Source: an uncultured Chlamydiaceae bacterium (lineage in GTDB: Bacteria > Chlamydiota > Chlamydiia > Chlamydiales > Chlamydiaceae). Taken from it: a DNA stretch of 64,000 bases. Positions 31,684 to 45,941 of the stretch are shown one piece after another. The notes beneath the pieces are model-generated. The model made no database searches and was not told the DNA's origin. It saw only the letters and a list, made by a program, of their open reading frames with translations. The position numbers were made by a program, and so were the translations under genes. The number at the start of each line of letters is the position of its first letter. The stretch's first letter is position 1. The DNA is taken from the NCBI GenBank assembly GCA_963558895.1, contig CAUWIK010000004.1, forward strand, positions 32,966 to 96,965, in the 5' to 3' direction.

Positions 31684-32094
31684 TTGGCTAAGAAACAAAT
31701 GCAGCTCAAAAAAGGAGCTAAAAGTGCAAAAAAGAAAATAAATAGAAACATTCCATCGGGAGTTGTTCATGTGAAAGCAACTTTCAATAATACTATTGTT
31801 TCTATTACTGATCCTGTAGGAAATGTCATAGCATGGGCTTCAGCAGGTAAAGTAGGATACTCTGGTTCTAGGAAATCCTCAGCTTTTGCGGCTACGGTAG
31901 CAGCACAAGATGCAGCAAAAATTGCTATGAATAGTGGATTAAAAGAAGTCGAAGTTAATTTAAAAGGAACTGGTGCTGGTAGGGAATCTGTAGTTCGAGC
32001 TTTAATAAGTACAGGCTTGGTTGTTTCTATTATTCGGGATGAAACTCCTGTTCCTCATAATGGTTGCAGAGCAAGAAAGAGACGAAGAGTATAG
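31684..32094 (+). CDS. rpsK: 30S ribosomal protein S11
   Basis: TTG start 6 nt after [27 protein letters not shown] and [16 protein letters not shown]. Confidence 0.94.
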
Positions 32095-32102
32095 GAGAAA
32101 AT

Positions 32103-33245
32103 ATGATGGAACATGAAGATGAGCAACAAGAACTTCCTGCATTGTTATATGATAAATTTGAATTGCCGCAGTCTATAGAAGTTAATTTTGTAGAAGGTTA
32201 TCCTATTACAAAAAAAGCTCGTTTTGTAGCAGAGCCTTTAGAAAGAGGAATGGGGCATACTTTAGGTAATGCTTTAAGAAGAACTTTATTAGTTGCTTTG
32301 GAAGCTCCAGCAATTATTTCTTTTTCAATGGAAGGTGTTTCTCATGAATATATGGCAGTTCCTGGGATAATAGAAGATGTTACTAATATTATTTTGAATT
32401 TAAAAGGAGCTCTTCTAAAAAAACTTCCAATGCAAGACAATGAGCAAGGAAGAGCCATTCGTTCAATTACTACTTATTTATCAATAGATTTAGCAGATTT
32501 GGATAATGAGAATGGCCAGAAAGTAATTACTTTAGCTGATTTAATTCAAACTAAAGATTTTGAGTTAGTAAATCCAGATCATGTTATTTTTACTATAACT
32601 AAACCATTAGATATTCGGGTTGATTTAAAAGTAGCTTTTGGAAGGGGTTACGTTCCTTCTGAGAGACAAAAACTGCCATCTAAAAAAGTAAATGAAATTA
32701 TTTTGGACGCAGCTTTTTCCCCTGTTATTTTAGCTAATTACTTTGTAGAAGATACTCGAGTAGGACAAGATACGGATTTAGATAGGTTAGTTCTAGATAT
32801 AGAGACTGATGGTAGGTTATTGCCTCAAGAAGCTTTAGCTTTTTCTACTAAAATCTTAGTTAAGCATCTTAGTGTTTTTGAAAAAATGGATGAAAGAAAA
32901 ATTGTTTTTGAAGAAACAGTTTCTTTAGAAAAAGAAAATAAAGATGAAATTTTATCTAAGTTAATTTTAGGTATTAACGAAATAGAACTTTCTGTCCGTT
33001 CAACAAACTGTCTTTCTAGTGCAAATATAGAAACTATTGGAGAACTGGTAATTATGCCAGAACCTAAACTTTTACAATTTCGTAATTTTGGAAAAAAATC
33101 CCTTTGTGAAATTAAAAATAAATTAAAAGAAATGAAATTAGAATTAGGAATGGATTTGAGCCAATTTGGTATTACATTAGAAAATGTAAAAGATAAAGTA
33201 AAATGGTATGCTGAAAGATTGCGTAATAAAAATACAAAAGGGTAG
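32103..33245 (+). CDS. rpoA: DNA-directed RNA polymerase alpha subunit
   Basis: ATG at 32103 preceded by AGGAG. N-terminal domain ([19 protein letters not shown]) and C-terminal domain ([22 protein letters not shown]). Confidence 0.96.
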
Positions 33246-33253
33246 AAGCAAAA

Positions 33254-33679
33254 ATGCAACATGCTAGAAAAAAATTTAGATTAAGTAGAACTTCTTCGCA
33301 TAATCGATGCATGATAGCGAACATGTTAAAATCTTTAATTACTTATGAAAAAATTCAAACAACTCTTCCTAAAGCAAAGGAATTACGTCGCCATGCTGAT
33401 AAAATGGTTACTTTAGCTAAGAAAAAAACTTTAGCCAGTGATAGGCGAGTTATAGCGCGTCTTATGGTTAGGTATAATTCTTTGACTAGTAAAGAAAGAA
33501 GAGAAGTGAAATCTGGAAATATTTCTTCATATAATGATGATCGTTTAATTTTATCTAAATTACATGAATTAGCTTCTAGATTTGCAATGCGTCAAGGTGG
33601 GTATACTCGTATATTAAAGACTGAAAATAGAGTTGGCGATAATGCTCAAAAATGTATTATAGAGTTTTTATCCGAATAA
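33254..33679 (+). CDS. rplQ: 50S ribosomal protein L17
   Basis: [13 protein letters not shown]...[22 protein letters not shown] and GGYTRILK. Confidence 0.95.
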
Positions 33680-38157: not shown

Positions 38158-38592
38158 ATGACTAAAGAAAAAACTTTATCAATTATTAAACCTGATGCTG
38201 TAGCTAAACATCATATTGGACATATTATTGCTCGTTTTGAAGAAGAAGGATTAACTATTCTTGCTATTAAAATGATGCATTTAACTAAGAAAACTGCTGC
38301 AGGATTTTATGCAGTTCATAAAGAAAGACCATTTTTTGATGAATTGGTAGAGTTTATGTCTTCAGGTCCTATTGTTGTTATGGTTCTTGAAGGAGAAAAT
38401 GCTATCGCAAGAAATAGAGATATCATGGGAGCAACTAATCCTAAAGAAGCTAGTTCGGGATCTTTAAGGGCTTTATATGGTGAATCCATAGGATTTAATG
38501 CTGTTCATGGATCTGATTCTAAAGAAACGGCTAAAGAAGAAATATCTTACTTTTTCTCTGGAAAAAAATTAACTAGTTTAGATCGCAACTAA
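38158..38592 (+). CDS. ndk: nucleoside diphosphate kinase
   Basis: [10 protein letters not shown] and NAVHGSDS (catalytic His). GAGGAG ribosome binding site. Confidence 0.96.
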
Positions 38593-38600
38593 TTATTACT

Positions 38601-39320
38601 TTATAATGATAGGAGTTGAGTAGTTTTTCTATGATCAGAATTAATTATATTTAGAATTCTTTCTGCTGGGACTTCTGTCATTTTAAATTTATTTTTTAAA
38701 TAACTCTCTAAGGAAAAAATGAAGTTTTGTTTATTATTATAAAAATTATTAAGTTTTTCTAAAAAATCATTGTGATTTCGATGTTGTCTGTAAGAAGGCT
38801 GTTGTTTTGGCAACTTCAAATAACGATTCATTAGGAAGCTATTGAAATCCCATAAAAAAGAACTATGTAGTAACCATCTGTTTTTTTGTATATATAAAGC
38901 ATTTCCACCGATTTTTTTGTTTAAGATACAATAATCATTATCTTTAAGCAAAAAATTTTTTGGAAAAACATTTTGATATAAAGATTTAGCCCAAGTTAGA
39001 ATGTTTTCTGCAAATGGAGAGATAGATAAACTAGGAACATTGTTTATAATCCAAGTAATAAATATAGTTGATTGTTCAACAAAAACAGTTCCACCTCCAG
39101 AAAATCTTTTAATAATAGGAATATTATCTTGTTTTACATGATCTATAAAAAGCAATTCTTTGGGATCTCCAGATATTCCTAAGACAATAGAGGGAGATAC
39201 ATCTGTATTTATTAAACACCAGTTTTGAGTATCATTTCTTAACAAAGCTTCTTCTAATTGTAATTGAGTAAAAATAGGAATATTTTTTAATAAAATAAAT
39301 TTACAATTGCTTATAAGCAT
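38601..39320 (-). CDS. lplA: lipoate-protein ligase A family protein
   Basis: 239 aa. [12 protein letters not shown] (RRxSGGGAV-like) and KKIGGNALY motifs. Overlaps the mnmG end. Confidence 0.8.
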
Positions 39321-41142
39321 GTTTTTTAAGTGCTATTATTAAAACTTGAATATCAGCGACAGCAATTCCAGGAAGTCGAGAGGCTATTCCTATTGTTGCA
39401 GGGGTAAATTTTTTAAATTTTTCTTGTGCTTCTAAACTAAGTCCTGATATTGCTGAATAATTTAAATCTTTGGGAAGGACTAAATTTTCTGCAAGGAGTT
39501 GACTTTCAATAGCTGCTTTTTGTCTTTCTAAATAACCTTCATATTTAATTTCTATTTCTATAAAGTTATTTAACTCATCTCCATAGTCAACAATGGATTC
39601 AGGAAAATTTTGTAGTAAATTTTGATAAGATATTTCAGGTCTACGCAAAAATTGAGCTAAAGATATACTATGAGAGCCTTCTTGCTTGAAGATTTTATTT
39701 AAACGTTGTTTTTCTTGTTCAATTATTTTTTTTTGTTGAACAACCAAGAGATGTTCTTGTTCGTCCTTTAAACCTAATTGATAAGCATAATGAGTAAGAC
39801 GTAATCGAGAGTTATCTTGCCTTAATAATAAACGGTACTCTGCTCTGCTGGTAAACATTCTATAAGGTTCATCTAGATGTCTTGTTGTAAGATCATCAAT
39901 CATAACTCCGATATAAGATTCATGTCTTTTTAGTATAAATTCTTTTTGTTTTCGAATTTTTAATACAGCATTTATACCAGCTATTAAACCTTGAGCTGCA
40001 GCTTCTTCGTAACCAGTAGTTCCGTTAATTTGTCCACAAAGAAACAAGTTGTTAATAATTTTTGTTTCTAAAGAAGGATAAATTTGCCCGCTACAAATGT
40101 AATCATATTCTATTGCATAAGCTGGACGACTAATAATAGCAGATTCTAAACCAGAAACAGATTGAATAAGCTCATATTGAATATCAATAGGAAGAGATGT
40201 TGACAAACCGTTTACATAAAATTCTTTAGTATGAATACCTTCTGGTTCTAGAAAAATTTGATGACGATCCTTGTCAGAAAACTTTACAATTTTATCTTCT
40301 ATAGAAGGACAATATCTTGGACCTATTCCATGGATATGACCTCCGTATAAGGCTGATTTTTCTAAGTTTTTTTCTACAATTTCTTTTGTTTTAGGTGTAG
40401 TGTAAGTAATCCAACAAGATTTTTGAGGCAGTGAAGGAATAAAATTTTTAATTCCATGCCTAAAGCAAATATCATTATCACCTGCTTGCTCTATCATTTC
40501 AGAAAAATTAATAGAGGAAGCCATTATTCTAGCCGGTGTTCCGGTTTTTAATCTATCAAGTTTAAATCCAAGTTTTTTTAATGTAGAAGAAAGTGAAAGA
40601 TCTGCAGAATCTCCTGCTCTTCCTCCAGAGTAGTGCATTTTTCCTATATGTATGCATCCTTGCATAAATGTTCCAGAAGATAGAATTACAGTTTCTCCAA
40701 GAAAACAAATTTGTTCTTTAGTAAGAACTCCAACTATAGAATCTTTTTTTATGATTAAATCCGAAACGGATGCTTGAAATAAATGTAAATTGGAAATTCC
40801 TTCAAGAGTTTTTTTCATTTCAAGATGATATAACAATTTATCTGCTTGAGCTCTTGGAGCACGAACAGCAGGACCTTTGGCATGATTTAACATACGAAAT
40901 TGAATACCTGTAGAGTCTATTATTGAAGGCATGACTCCACCTAAAGCATCTATTTCTCTTACAATGTGCCCTTTACCAATACCTCCTATAGCAGGATTGC
41001 AACTTAACTTAGCAATAGTATCTAAATTAGATGTTATCAATAAAACGGAAGCATTTAACTTGGCTGCAATAAAAGCTGCTTCGCAACCGGCATGACCAGC
41101 TCCTATAACAATTACGTCATATGTTTTAGGATAAGACCACAT
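39301..41142 (-). CDS. mnmG: tRNA uridine 5-carboxymethylaminomethyl modification enzyme MnmG (GidA)
   Basis: 613 aa. [19 protein letters not shown] site, [11 protein letters not shown] and [19 protein letters not shown]. Confidence 0.97.
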
Positions 41143-41174
41143 AATAAACTCACAAAATAAGATAAAGGCAAAGG

Positions 41175-41264
41175 TTATTTATTTTTATGTCTGTCTCTTC
41201 TTCGACGTTTTTTTCTTTTGTGTTTTGCTATTTTATACTGGCGTTTCTTTTTAACTGAAGACAT
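41175..41264 (-). CDS. 29-aa highly basic micro-protein, bS22/mS38 (AURKAIP1/COX24)-like
   Basis: Hand-translated and absent from the ORF track: [29 protein letters not shown], stop TAA. It matches my recollection of mycobacterial bS22 ([33 protein letters not shown]). It lies 32 nt upstream of mnmG and 103 nt downstream of dnaB on the same strand. Confidence 0.55.
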
Positions 41265-41367
41265 ATTATTTAATTTTCCAAATTCTAAAAGGGTATACAT
41301 TAACTGGTTTATTTTAAAAAATCAAGGCTCAATTATTAGCTTTATTTTTTAAATTAAAATTTGTTTT

Positions 41368-43215
41368 TTATGTATCTACAAGAATTGGAGTATAATTGCG
41401 AAATAAGGCTAACTCTTTTTCAAAAGTTAGCATAACTGTTCCAATGGCTCCGTGTCTATTTTTCGCTACAATTAATTCGGCTAAACCTGGTTTATCATGA
41501 GGATCATAATATTCTCTTCGCAATAAGAACATGACTAAGTCAGAGTCTTGTTCAATGCTGTTGTGTACGATAATATTTTGTGCAATAAAATTGTGATTAT
41601 TAGCAACTGTAACATCGAATACTTTAGATTGACCTAAGGGAACAATAGATATAATTTTATCATAATAAATATTTGAAGATAGAGGATCTTTGACAAGAAT
41701 AGAATCACCGGATTTTAAATTGCTTAATTTTGTCCATATATTATCTCTATAAAAAGGATGATTTTCTGAAGCTTTTATGCAAAATCCACTTTCGGTATTT
41801 AATTTAAAAACCTGTTTTTCTCCGGAGTAAAAAGCTTTTGTTATAACGTCTTTTTCTAAAAGAAAAGAGTTTGTATTAAAAGATAAAATAGGCAAAGGTA
41901 AAAGACAGGGATTTTCTGTTAACTCTTTCATGGTTAATTTTTTCCCTTCTAGAGAAGTAATTATTGAATCCCCAGTTAAACACCCACTTTCTCTTAAGTC
42001 ACTCATCATAGGTCGGTGATTAGCTCGGTCTTCAACTTTTCTAGAAAGTTGAGATAAGCACAGGATAGGGATATTTAATTCTCTTGCTAAAGTCTTTAAA
42101 TCTCTAGAAATTTCGGAAATCTCATTTTGCCTACTTTCTTGAGATCGAAAAGAACCAGATCCAGAAAGTAATTGTAAATAATCAATGATTAAAAATTTAA
42201 TACCATGACTTTCTTTCATTCTTCTTGCTCTTGCTTTTAAATCTGATATTTTTATTCCAGGCTGATCATCTATAAACATTTTGTGTTTTTTCATTTCTTC
42301 AACAGCAGAAACAATTTTTTGGAAATCGTGACCAGTTAAATTTCCCAGCTGAATTTTTTGAGATTCTACCTCAGATTGAGAGCAGACTATTCTATGCAAC
42401 AACTGTTCAGCACTCATTTCTAAAGAAAAAATTCCAACAGGAACGTCATGTTTAAAACAAATATTTTCGGCGATATTAAGAGCTAATGCTGTTTTTCCCA
42501 TAGCTGGCCTCGCAGCCAAGATCATTAGATTAGAAGGCATAAAACCATTTAATAGTCGATCTACGTCTATGAAATATGTGGGTAATGCTAATAAATTAAT
42601 ATGGTTATTTTGGCCAGGAGAAGATCTAAAAGCCTCTTGTTTTTCTTGAATTTCTGTAAGAAAAGGTTTTTGAGAAGTTGTTGATATTCCTTCTAACATG
42701 TGAGAAAGAAGAACCCCTTCTCCTGAATGAGATGATTGGCTAATTTGAAAAAATAGGTTTTGAGCTTCATTTAAAACTTCTCGAAAATCAGAAGGTTCTT
42801 CTATAGCTTTTTTTTCAATAAATTGAGCTGTTTTAATCATTTTTCTTAAAATAGCTTTACTTTTTACTATTTCAGAATATTCCTCAATATAAGCGGATGT
42901 TCCTGCGAACTGAGCTAGGGTTGTTAGATAGTTAATTCCTCCAATGACTTCTAATTTATTTTGTCTTTTTAATTCTTCTGCAGTTAAGCGTACATCTATA
43001 GGACGATCTTGTTTATAAGCTAATTTTAAAACCTGAAAAATAATTTTATGTTCTAGAAAATAAAAATCTTCTTCATTTAATTTATCTGCAACTGAATTGA
43101 TGGCATTAATATTAGTTAACATGGAACCTATTACCATCATTTCAGAATCTCTTGAATGAGGAGGCAATTTGAGTGCTGAATCAGACATTTTAGATTTTTT
43201 TGTAGTTTTAACCAT
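41368..43215 (-). CDS. dnaB: replicative DNA helicase DnaB, interrupted in frame by a mini-intein
   Basis: 615 aa. N-terminal domain, Walker A (ARPAMGKTALALN), IIDYLQLL and SQLSRKVEDRANHRPMMSDLRESG. A 141-aa insert follows, then SIEQDSDLVMFLLRREYY. The two exteins sum to 474 aa. Confidence 0.96.
   Translation of the reverse strand: MVKTTKKSKMSDSALKLPPHSRDSEMMVIGSMLTNINAINSVADKLNEEDFYFLEHKIIFQVLKLAYKQDRPIDVRLTAEELKRQNKLEVIGGINYLTTLAQFAGTSAYIEEYSEIVKSKAILRKMIKTAQFIEKKAIEEPSDFREVLNEAQNLFFQISQSSHSGEGVLLSHMLEGISTTSQKPFLTEIQEKQEAFRSSPGQNNHINLLALPTYFIDVDRLLNGFMPSNLMILAARPAMGKTALALNIAENICFKHDVPVGIFSLEMSAEQLLHRIVCSQSEVESQKIQLGNLTGHDFQKIVSAVEEMKKHKMFIDDQPGIKISDLKARARRMKESHGIKFLIIDYLQLLSGSGSFRSQESRQNEISEISRDLKTLARELNIPILCLSQLSRKVEDRANHRPMMSDLRESGCLTGDSIITSLEGKKLTMKELTENPCLLPLPILSFNTNSFLLEKDVITKAFYSGEKQVFKLNTESGFCIKASENHPFYRDNIWTKLSNLKSGDSILVKDPLSSNIYYDKIISIVPLGQSKVFDVTVANNHNFIAQNIIVHNSIEQDSDLVMFLLRREYYDPHDKPGLAELIVAKNRHGAIGTVMLTFEKELALFRNYTPILVDT
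41560..41982 (-). mobile_element. mini-intein (141 aa, no homing-endonuclease domain) inside dnaB
   Basis: DnaB residues 412-552. Block A CLTGDSIIT (Cys1 codon TGT at 41982-41980, checked on the nucleotides), block B SENH, block F VFDVTVANNHNFIA, block G NIIVHN followed by the +1 Ser (AGC at 41559-41557). Same site as the Synechocystis DnaB intein (ESG/CISGDSLI ... DIIVHN/SIEQDAD, from memory). Confidence 0.9.
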
Positions 43216-43377: not shown

Positions 43378-43465
43378 GGAAAGATGGCTGAGTGGTCGAA
43401 AGCACGTCCCTGCTAAGGACGCGTACCCCTAAAGGGTACCGAGGGTTCGAATCCCTCTCTTTCCA
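43378..43465 (+). tRNA. tRNA-Ser (anticodon GCT), no encoded CCA
   Basis: Acceptor GGAAAGA/TCTTTCC, anticodon stem CGTCC/GGACG with loop CTGCTAA, long variable arm, T-loop GTTCGAAT. Confidence 0.87.
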
Positions 43466-44297: not shown

Positions 44298-45941
44298 GTG
44301 AGCGCAACATCTAAAAACAAATTGTTTTCTAAATGGCGAGCACTAATTTGGCCTATATATCACTATGACTTAAGTAAGTTTTTGCCTCTGTTCTTTTTGG
44401 CTTTTTTTATAGGATTTAATTATACCGTACTTAAAAATATGAAGGATGCTTTATTAGTATCCACAGCTGGAGCCGGGGCAGAAGTAATTCCTTTTATTAA
44501 AGTTTGGGGTATTGTTCCTGGAGCAGTATTAATGACTGCTTTTTATGGCTTTTTAAGTAATAAACACAATAAACGAACTGTTTTTTTTATTCTTGTTGGA
44601 TTTTTTAGCATATTTTTTATTCTTTTTTCTTGTGTAATGTACCCTTGTCAAGAGTATTTGAGATTAGATGCTTTATCGGATCGTTTAAGTTTGATTTTGC
44701 CTCAAGGATTTAAGGGTTTAGTGGCAATGATTCGCTATTGGAGCTTTAGTTTATTTTATGTTATGTCTGAATTATGGGGCTCTGTTGTTTTATCAACTTT
44801 ATTTTGGAGTTTAGCTAATGAAATAACTTCTGTTTCAGAAGCTAGTCGTTATTATGCTTTAATAAATACGGCTATTAATTTGGCAGGTTTGTTTGCTGGA
44901 TTATTTTCTGTATGGATAAGTACTCCAATATTTTTACGTTTTGTAGTAGATGAATGGCATAATATCATTATCCTTCTTACTATTTTTATATCAATCTCTA
45001 GTATTTTTGTTTTATTTCTTTATAATTTTTCTTATCAGAAACAGAATAAAAAATTAATTAAAGAAGAAACTTTTGTTAAAGATTCTTTGATTTCTTTAAA
45101 AGTTAATCAGAAGAAAGAAGAAAGAGAACGTGTAAAACTTCCAAAGTTGTTTTCGTATATTTCTCATTCTAGGTATCTTTTGTATATAGCAGCTCTTGTT
45201 TTATCATATAACTTAACAATTCATTTGTTTGAGGTTGTTTGGAAAGATCAGGTAAGTAATTTATACCCAAGTCCTATTGATTTTAATATGTATATGGGAA
45301 GAGTTTCATCTTTTACTGGTATTGTTTCTACGTTAACTTCCTTGTTAATTTCTGGCCATTTGATAAGAAAGTTTGGTTGGACATTGAGTGCTTTTCTTAC
45401 TCCTTTAATTATGTTTGTAACCGGAAGTGTTTTTTTTATAACTATTTTCCTTTTTCAAAAAAATAGTTCTATGCTTTCTTTTTTAGGAATGCATTCTCCT
45501 TTATCTTGTATTGTTTTTTTGGGTTCTGTACAAAATATTTTATCGCGTACTTCAAAGTTTACTTTTTTTGATATAACAAAAGAAATGGCTTTTATTCCTT
45601 TATCTCCCGAAGCTAAGAGAAGAGCAAAAGCAGTAATAGATGGTGTTGTTTCTAGAGTAGGAAAATCTGGGGGCTCTTTTCTTTATCAATTTTTGTTAAT
45701 TTTATTTTCTACAATTTCGGCAAGCATTAATGTTGTTAGCTTTCTACTTATTTTTATATTTATATCTTGGAGTTTGTCTATATTTGGTTTATCAAAAAAG
45801 TTTTCTCAATTGACTATTGATGAAAATCAATCTGCAGATGTTGTAAATTTTAATGATAAGAATGTAATTTTATCTACTTATAATACTATTGAGGATCTTA
45901 CTCCTTCTTCTCTAAAGGAGATAACCCCAGTTATTAAATAA
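44298..45941 (+). CDS. npt2: TLC-family nucleotide transporter (ATP/ADP translocase / NTP importer), Npt2 by genomic position
   Basis: 547 aa with a GTG start and about 12 TM segments. The N-terminus (WRALIWPIYHYDLSKFLPLFFLAFFIGFNYTVLKNMKDALLV) matches the chlamydial/rickettsial Npt/Tlc pattern. Assigning Npt2 rather than Npt1 rests on synteny only. Confidence 0.85.
   Translation: MSATSKNKLFSKWRALIWPIYHYDLSKFLPLFFLAFFIGFNYTVLKNMKDALLVSTAGAGAEVIPFIKVWGIVPGAVLMTAFYGFLSNKHNKRTVFFILVGFFSIFFILFSCVMYPCQEYLRLDALSDRLSLILPQGFKGLVAMIRYWSFSLFYVMSELWGSVVLSTLFWSLANEITSVSEASRYYALINTAINLAGLFAGLFSVWISTPIFLRFVVDEWHNIIILLTIFISISSIFVLFLYNFSYQKQNKKLIKEETFVKDSLISLKVNQKKEERERVKLPKLFSYISHSRYLLYIAALVLSYNLTIHLFEVVWKDQVSNLYPSPIDFNMYMGRVSSFTGIVSTLTSLLISGHLIRKFGWTLSAFLTPLIMFVTGSVFFITIFLFQKNSSMLSFLGMHSPLSCIVFLGSVQNILSRTSKFTFFDITKEMAFIPLSPEAKRRAKAVIDGVVSRVGKSGGSFLYQFLLILFSTISASINVVSFLLIFIFISWSLSIFGLSKKFSQLTIDENQSADVVNFNDKNVILSTYNTIEDLTPSSLKEITPVIK

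Follow-up and report, generated by a model that had tools for sequence, protein, structure and literature searches.

A canonical class 1 mini-intein interrupts the replicative helicase DnaB in a chlamydial lineage

The dnaB gene of the window, by which we mean the whole 64-kb stretch of DNA that was analysed, encodes a replicative helicase that is interrupted in frame by a canonical class 1 mini-intein. From our point of view, the element is very probably a cis-splicing intein that is free of an endonuclease, immobile, vertically inherited and kept functional, the latter because any allele unable to splice would encode an essential helicase with 141 extra aa in its DNA-binding loop. An in-frame mini-intein splitting DnaB had been proposed in a first-pass annotation of this DNA, and all sequence facts given there were confirmed, namely an open reading frame of 615 aa, an insert at residues 412-552, the codons of Cys1, of the terminal Asn and of Ser+1, and a helicase of 474 aa upon removal of the insert (Table 1). 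A reduced, obligately intracellular lineage retains an intein in the only replicative helicase that is visible within the 64-kb window, which probably makes splicing indispensable to this lineage.

Table 1. Positions of the dnaB gene, its exteins and the sequence blocks of the intein within the window
Feature	Position	Strand	Basis
dnaB precursor ORF, 615 aa with the intein	41368..43215	-	stop codon 41368-41370; ORF translation, Pfam/NCBIfam
N-extein, residues 1-411, ending ...MMSDLRESG (Gly-1)	41983..43215	-	alignment with G. stearothermophilus DnaB ends at G384
Class 1 mini-intein, 141 aa (residues 412-552 of the precursor), with no domain besides the HINT splicing domain	41560..41982	-	
Cys1 codon TGT, residue 412, block A nucleophile	41980..41982	-	read from nucleotides
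Block B, S72-E-N-H75, SxNH variant of TxxH	41758..41769	-	read from nucleotides
Blocks F and G, VFD123VTVANNH130NFIAQNIIVH140N141	41560..41622	-	read from nucleotides
Terminal Asn codon AAC, residue 552	41562-41560	-	read from nucleotides
Ser+1 codon AGC, residue 553, first C-extein residue, second nucleophile	41557..41559	-	read from nucleotides
C-extein, residues 553-615, starting SIEQDSDLVMF	41371..41559	-	aligns to G. stearothermophilus (Bst) DnaB from S385 onward

Identity and class of the insert

The insert starts with CLTGDSIIT, contains the internal motif SENH and ends with VFDVTVANNHNFIAQNIIVHN, which is followed by the Ser of SIEQD. Its removal in silico leaves 474 aa with a contiguous DLRESG-SIEQD stretch (...MMSDLRESGSIEQDSD...). 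The full 615-aa protein matches the Pfam domains DnaB and DnaB_C and, with the insert included, reaches 797 bits against the NCBIfam model NF004967 (replicative DNA helicase equivalog; cut-off 751), while the model NF005852 (intein-containing DnaB) aligns across the N-terminal junction. Since the identical protein was found in independent NCBI, ENA and Logan assemblies, the intein in dnaB is not an assembly artefact.

When the insert alone was compared with intein profiles, as the first-pass annotation had recommended, the cut-offs of all three models were exceeded, with 62.3 bits for Pfam PF14890 Intein_splicing (cut-off 35.8, E 6e-17), 37.1 for TIGR01445 intein_Nterm (cut-off 24.5) and 23.1 for TIGR01443 intein_Cterm (cut-off 15.6), so that the match lies far above chance level. 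The blocks A, B, F and G, whose absence had been named as a reason to abandon the claim, are all present. Among sequences in the PDB, the best match is the DnaB mini-intein of Nostoc punctiforme (4o1r; 8e-23, over the full length), and the matches also comprise the Synechocystis DnaB mini-inteins 1mi8 and 6frg/6frh (Ssp, 5e-17). An AlphaFold2 model of the 141-aa intein, built on 28 related mini-inteins, has a mean pLDDT of 97.8 with 141/141 residues above 90 and displays an all-beta HINT fold of horseshoe topology. In Foldseek, this model superimposes on 4o1r with a TM score of 0.92 and an rmsd of 1.2 Å and on the Mtu RecA mini-intein with a TM score of 0.93, and the Ssp DnaB mini-intein is also found among the top structures. 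The insert thus combines scores above the profile cut-offs, a HINT fold and an in-frame position at a conserved site, as expected for an intein.

A Pfam profile search revealed no LAGLIDADG or HNH endonuclease domain in the insert, all 141 residues are modelled as HINT, and a comparison with the 142-residue chain of Npu DnaB shows no large insertion. The notion that the insert is too short to hold a homing endonuclease was hence borne out, and the lack of such a domain between blocks B and F makes it a mini-intein. Direct reading of the sequence further confirmed that all splicing residues are intact: Cys1 in block A, the xxxH motif of block B (SENH), D123, H130, H140 and N141 in blocks F and G, and Ser+1, which is the residue set of a class 1 intein. 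An HMM of the dnaB intein detected no second intein of that family within the 64-kb window.

Three other types of element were considered and rejected. Class 3 inteins carry a WCT triplet (Trp in block B, Cys in block F, Thr in block G) and usually lack the Cys1 nucleophile. The insert possesses Cys1, has no Cys in blocks F/G and no Thr in block G (NIIVHN); it is thus not of class 3, which needs both the block F Cys and the block G Thr, and the class 3 Msm DnaB intein 6bs8 took rank 49 in the fold search with the modelled intein. Bacterial intein-like (BIL) domains occur in variable regions of non-conserved proteins and are usually devoid of a C-terminal +1 nucleophile. This assignment can be dismissed because the insert has Ser+1 and interrupts a motif that does not vary in a conserved and essential protein; the BIL structure 2lwy matched the insert with an E value of 0.26 only. 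Finally, a split intein is excluded as everything is encoded by one uninterrupted 615-aa ORF.

Insertion site and predicted splicing

The Ssp DnaB mini-intein with native flanks (PDB 6frh) aligns as LRESG-[intein]-SIEQD. As these flanks are identical to those in the window, the intein interrupts exactly the same peptide bond as the Synechocystis DnaB intein, in agreement with the earlier statement that this is the classical insertion point in DnaB. In the window protein, the site lies between Gly411 and Ser553, and on the DnaB chain of G. stearothermophilus (for example 2r6a; same sequence in 4esv) it corresponds to G384/S385 in the stretch ...DIRESG/SIEQDAD..., where the slash marks the interrupted bond. 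The RESG/S loop aligns to the H4 DNA-binding motif of DnaB, and we take it that R381, E382 and G384 of 4esv contact single-stranded DNA. Motif H4 represents a DNA-binding loop of DnaB (Novikova et al. PMC4760082; Kelley et al. PMC6195587) and holds two intein sites, a and c, that are two residues apart (PMC4760082). The site is named here by its sequence (RESG/S) and not by the a/b/c site letters. The first-pass annotation had also suggested a search for intein-free dnaB alleles in relatives, and such alleles exist: of 116 chlamydial DnaB proteins that lack the intein, 113 have a contiguous site (LRESGS[IL]EQD).

From the conserved residues, a four-step class 1 pathway can be inferred. Following translation, Cys1 would undergo an N-S acyl shift, and the thioester would be attacked by Ser+1 to form a branched intermediate; cyclisation of Asn141, assisted by His140, would then release the intein, and an O-N shift would restore the peptide bond, giving rise to a 474-aa DnaB with a normal ...RESGSIEQD... 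loop. The intein is probably active in splicing. Because the insert interrupts the DNA-binding loop, the unspliced precursor would be expected to be inactive and replication would consequently depend on splicing, which is a reasonable inference on the assumption that no second dnaB lies outside the 64 kb seen. Having presumably lost its endonuclease, the intein would no longer move and would be passed on vertically in this chlamydial lineage.

Genomic setting, relatives and inheritance

Two genes upstream of dnaB, the window encodes an NTP/NDP exchange transporter of the ATP/ADP translocase type (44298-45941, + strand; TLC family, TIGR00769 with 516 bits). Such transporters are a hallmark of energy-parasitic intracellular bacteria, and together with a GC content of ~31% and a dense coding of the window, this is in line with the reduced genome of an obligately intracellular chlamydia. 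The genes ndk, lplA, mnmG (gidA) and dnaB follow each other in this order (38158-43215), which is presumably also the order in C. trachomatis. A tRNA-Ser(GCU) gene (43378-43465, + strand) resides in the 353-bp gap between dnaB and a divergent CDP-alcohol phosphatidyltransferase gene. Between dnaB and mnmG, there is a very basic ORF of 41 aa (41175-41300, - strand), which is also annotated as a gene in another, independent assembly, shows a weak Pfam match to COX24_C and no NCBIfam match, and may be similar to bS22 (mS38 family), a small ribosomal protein. In the ribosomal-protein region, a 145-aa ORF (32825-33262, - strand) lies antisense to, and almost wholly inside, a 393-aa ORF (32064-33245, + strand) and is probably spurious.

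With the full precursor as query, all of the best 120 database clusters (P0001-P0120) carry an intein at RESG/S, with sizes from 137 to 433 aa: 56 clusters with 137-160 aa, 19 with 161-400 aa and 45 with more than 400 aa, the latter with LAGLIDADG (PF14528). All matches with a named source are chlamydial, namely Ca. Clavichlamydia salmonicola (P0017), Rhabdochlamydiaceae and MAGs of Parachlamydiales and Chlamydiales, and the supposed rarity of inteins in Chlamydia-like reduced genomes, as assumed in the first-pass annotation, can thus not be maintained. The sizes at this site form a continuous series that includes intermediates of 161-400 aa, which, within one phylum, looks like the natural decay of a homing endonuclease. 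In five of the relatives (P0013, P0018, P0041, P0055 and P0114), a second intein is located in the P-loop (ARPAMGK/C...) besides the one at RESG/S. The same two-intein layout of DnaB occurs in actinobacteria and cyanobacteria.

The spliced extein as query returned a different set, as 116 of the best 120 matches were without an intein, a ranking that is no estimate of frequency because it is biased against split targets. The intein-less matches include Chlamydia pneumoniae, C. ibidis, Ca. C. corallus, Ca. C. sanziniae and a Parachlamydia and, judging from these sequences, the genus Chlamydia is without a DnaB intein. Along a neighbour-joining tree of 236 exteins, intein presence changes 26 times by parsimony compared to ~79 times upon shuffling, and the distribution is hence patchy but phylogenetically clustered. 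In this single-gene distance tree, in which the placement is tentative, the clade of the window protein groups with the intein-less Chlamydia spp. (83% bootstrap), and the intein-bearing Ca. Clavichlamydia represents the next branch (100%). The host of the window may be closely related to the Chlamydiaceae. Such a topology would allow for an ancestral intein that was lost in Chlamydia as well as for two independent gains. The inteins of the window and of Clavichlamydia share 36% identity on long branches, and in the neighbour-joining tree of inteins the window clade is basal to all chlamydial DnaB inteins, again on a long branch; at so low an identity and on such long branches, the intein tree does not separate shared ancestry with Clavichlamydia from independent acquisition.

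Outside the window clade, the closest other intein is ~50% identical. An intein-only query of a word-indexed protein database gave no matches, while an exhaustive HMMER search with the intein yielded 4135 representatives at E <= 0.001, and among the 150 matches listed none exceeded 49% identity and none indicated a donor lineage.

In an alignment of 59 chlamydia-type mini-inteins and the Ssp DnaB intein (n=60), the residues C1 (60/60), N74, H75, D123, T125, H130, N131, F132, H140 and N141 are invariant, with which the 28-sequence set agrees, and all relatives compared have Ser as the first residue of the C-extein (S[IL]EQD). In block B, 117 of the 120 related inteins have SxNH in place of TxxH, among them 44 of the 45 that bear an endonuclease, and Ser72 is therefore the norm of this family and no defect. 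The window lineage nevertheless carries unusual residues at six positions that are conserved in the rest of the family, which are T22 (consensus A), L27 (Q), Y78 (L), Y107 (W), V124 (A) and Q135 (N), and these substitutions, together with the long branch of the intein and a dN/dS above that of the extein (see below), weigh against our interpretation as a canonical active intein.

The closest relatives, P0002 (L018) and P0003 (L017), stem from independent assemblies and likewise encode a 615-aa precursor with a 141-aa intein, and their precursors share 89% and 85% identity, respectively, with that of the window. Across these three proteins, the Nei-Gojobori method gave a dN/dS of 0.11-0.26 at a dS of 0.82-1.29 for the intein and a dN/dS of 0.055-0.089 at a dS of 0.76-1.15 for the extein. 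The intein, with a dN/dS that is 1.6-3 times that of the extein, is thus under clear purifying selection that is weaker than that on the helicase. This is consistent with an active intein and, given a synonymous divergence similar to that of the extein, argues for vertical co-inheritance and a retained function, presumably splicing. The GC content of the intein (27-29%) is near that of the gene (~31%), and the element is hence compositionally assimilated.

One could speculate that the intein is active but conditional, with splicing gated by redox, temperature or another cue and with DnaB maturation and replication tied to the chlamydial developmental cycle. Redox-sensitive, conditional splicing of a DnaB intein has been documented in M. 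smegmatis (PMC6195587), and the window intein harbours two extra cysteines, C27 and C68, in addition to the Cys1 nucleophile and has been retained by two or more lineages that are restricted to hosts. However, even the closest relatives, P0002 (Ser at both positions) and P0003 (Glu at 27, Ser at 68), lack C27 and C68, for which reason a redox trap was set aside and a conditional switch is considered very unlikely. Furthermore, nothing sets the window intein apart from the constitutive Ssp and Npu DnaB inteins, and its persistence can simply be explained by the difficulty of a precise deletion. There is similarly only a slim chance that the intein dates back to an ancestor shared by the window lineage, Clavichlamydia and Chlamydia, was deleted precisely in Chlamydia and serves as a conditional (e.g. 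redox) switch wherever it was kept. If this were true, the switch would couple helicase maturation to the developmental cycle of chlamydiae with its oxidised infectious and reduced replicating forms.

The elevated dN/dS relative to the extein, the lineage-specific substitutions at conserved positions and the reduced, fast-evolving genome could also be read as signs of a dead remnant that does not splice, in which case the helicase would have to work with the insert or be substituted by another helicase. Against this stand the full set of intact catalytic residues, a dN/dS of 0.11-0.26 as a sign of clear purifying selection, a length that is fixed at 141 aa across a dS of ~1, and the location of the insert within a loop that aligns to the H4 DNA-binding motif (PMC4760082), and we hardly give this idea any chance. 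Next to no probability remains for a recent horizontal acquisition of a still mobile element. Inteins of ~430 aa with a LAGLIDADG endonuclease (PF14528) do occur at the same site in other chlamydiae, and the 26 changes over 236 tips reflect a patchy presence. The window copy, however, has no endonuclease, its GC content matches that of the host gene, its dS is similar to that of the extein among the three relatives with the 141-aa form, and the nearest other intein is only ~50% identical, so that such an origin is largely refuted for this copy. The canonical, vertically inherited mini-intein thus remains our preferred explanation.

Novelty and comparison with known DnaB inteins

DnaB represents the top bacterial intein host, with 317 inteins in a survey from 2016, and Chlamydiae are absent from the ten bacterial clades with DnaB inteins listed therein (PMC4760082). 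In the papers that were searchable, we found no description of chlamydial DnaB inteins; PMC3423634 treats the inteins of giant viruses that infect amoebae and not those of chlamydiae. The occurrence of chlamydial inteins at the level of the phylum hence appears to be undescribed in searchable papers, although it is obvious in sequence databases, as over 100 DnaB inteins of chlamydiae are present in public data. As an element, the intein is ordinary, since DnaB is the commonest bacterial intein host and the site is the textbook one. The decrease in size from 433 to 137 aa among inteins at one site in one phylum, in turn, provides a clean natural record of endonuclease decay.

The Ssp and Npu DnaB mini-inteins are already standard splicing tools. 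As these are of the same family and size, and as relatives of 137-139 aa are even shorter, the window intein adds little as a biotechnology tool, and its value as the compact splicing tool that had been envisaged is limited.

Compared to the DnaB inteins of other Chlamydiota, which range in size from 137 aa upwards, the window intein shares the site, the SxNH block B and the motifs FYSGKK and HNF. Its clade nevertheless forms a divergent branch with a HINT core that is 35-50% identical to the others, and while many of these keep a LAGLIDADG endonuclease or remnants thereof (161-433 aa), the window intein is without one. The mycobacterial inteins Msm DnaBi2 and Mtu DnaB resemble the window intein in that they belong to class 1, occupy the H4 DNA-binding loop and are followed by Ser+1 (PMC6195587), but these H4 inteins are endonuclease-bearing. 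Msm DnaBi1 differs in that it is of class 3 and located at the P-loop position.

The closest parallels are the DnaB inteins of Synechocystis sp. PCC 6803 (Ssp; 1mi8, 6frh) and Nostoc punctiforme (Npu; 4o1r), which reside in the same host protein, for Ssp with identical flanks (LRESG/SIEQD). They share the class 1 residues Cys1, xxxH, the F-block Asp, His-Asn and Ser+1 as well as the fold (TM 0.89-0.92) at an identity of 38-39% in the HINT core, and differ in block B, where the window intein has Ser instead of Thr, and in the host, which is a chlamydia and not a cyanobacterium. The Ssp and Npu mini-inteins in the PDB are, as we assume, engineered deletions of endonuclease-containing inteins of ~430 aa. 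The window intein, unlike these engineered forms, is naturally 141 aa in size.
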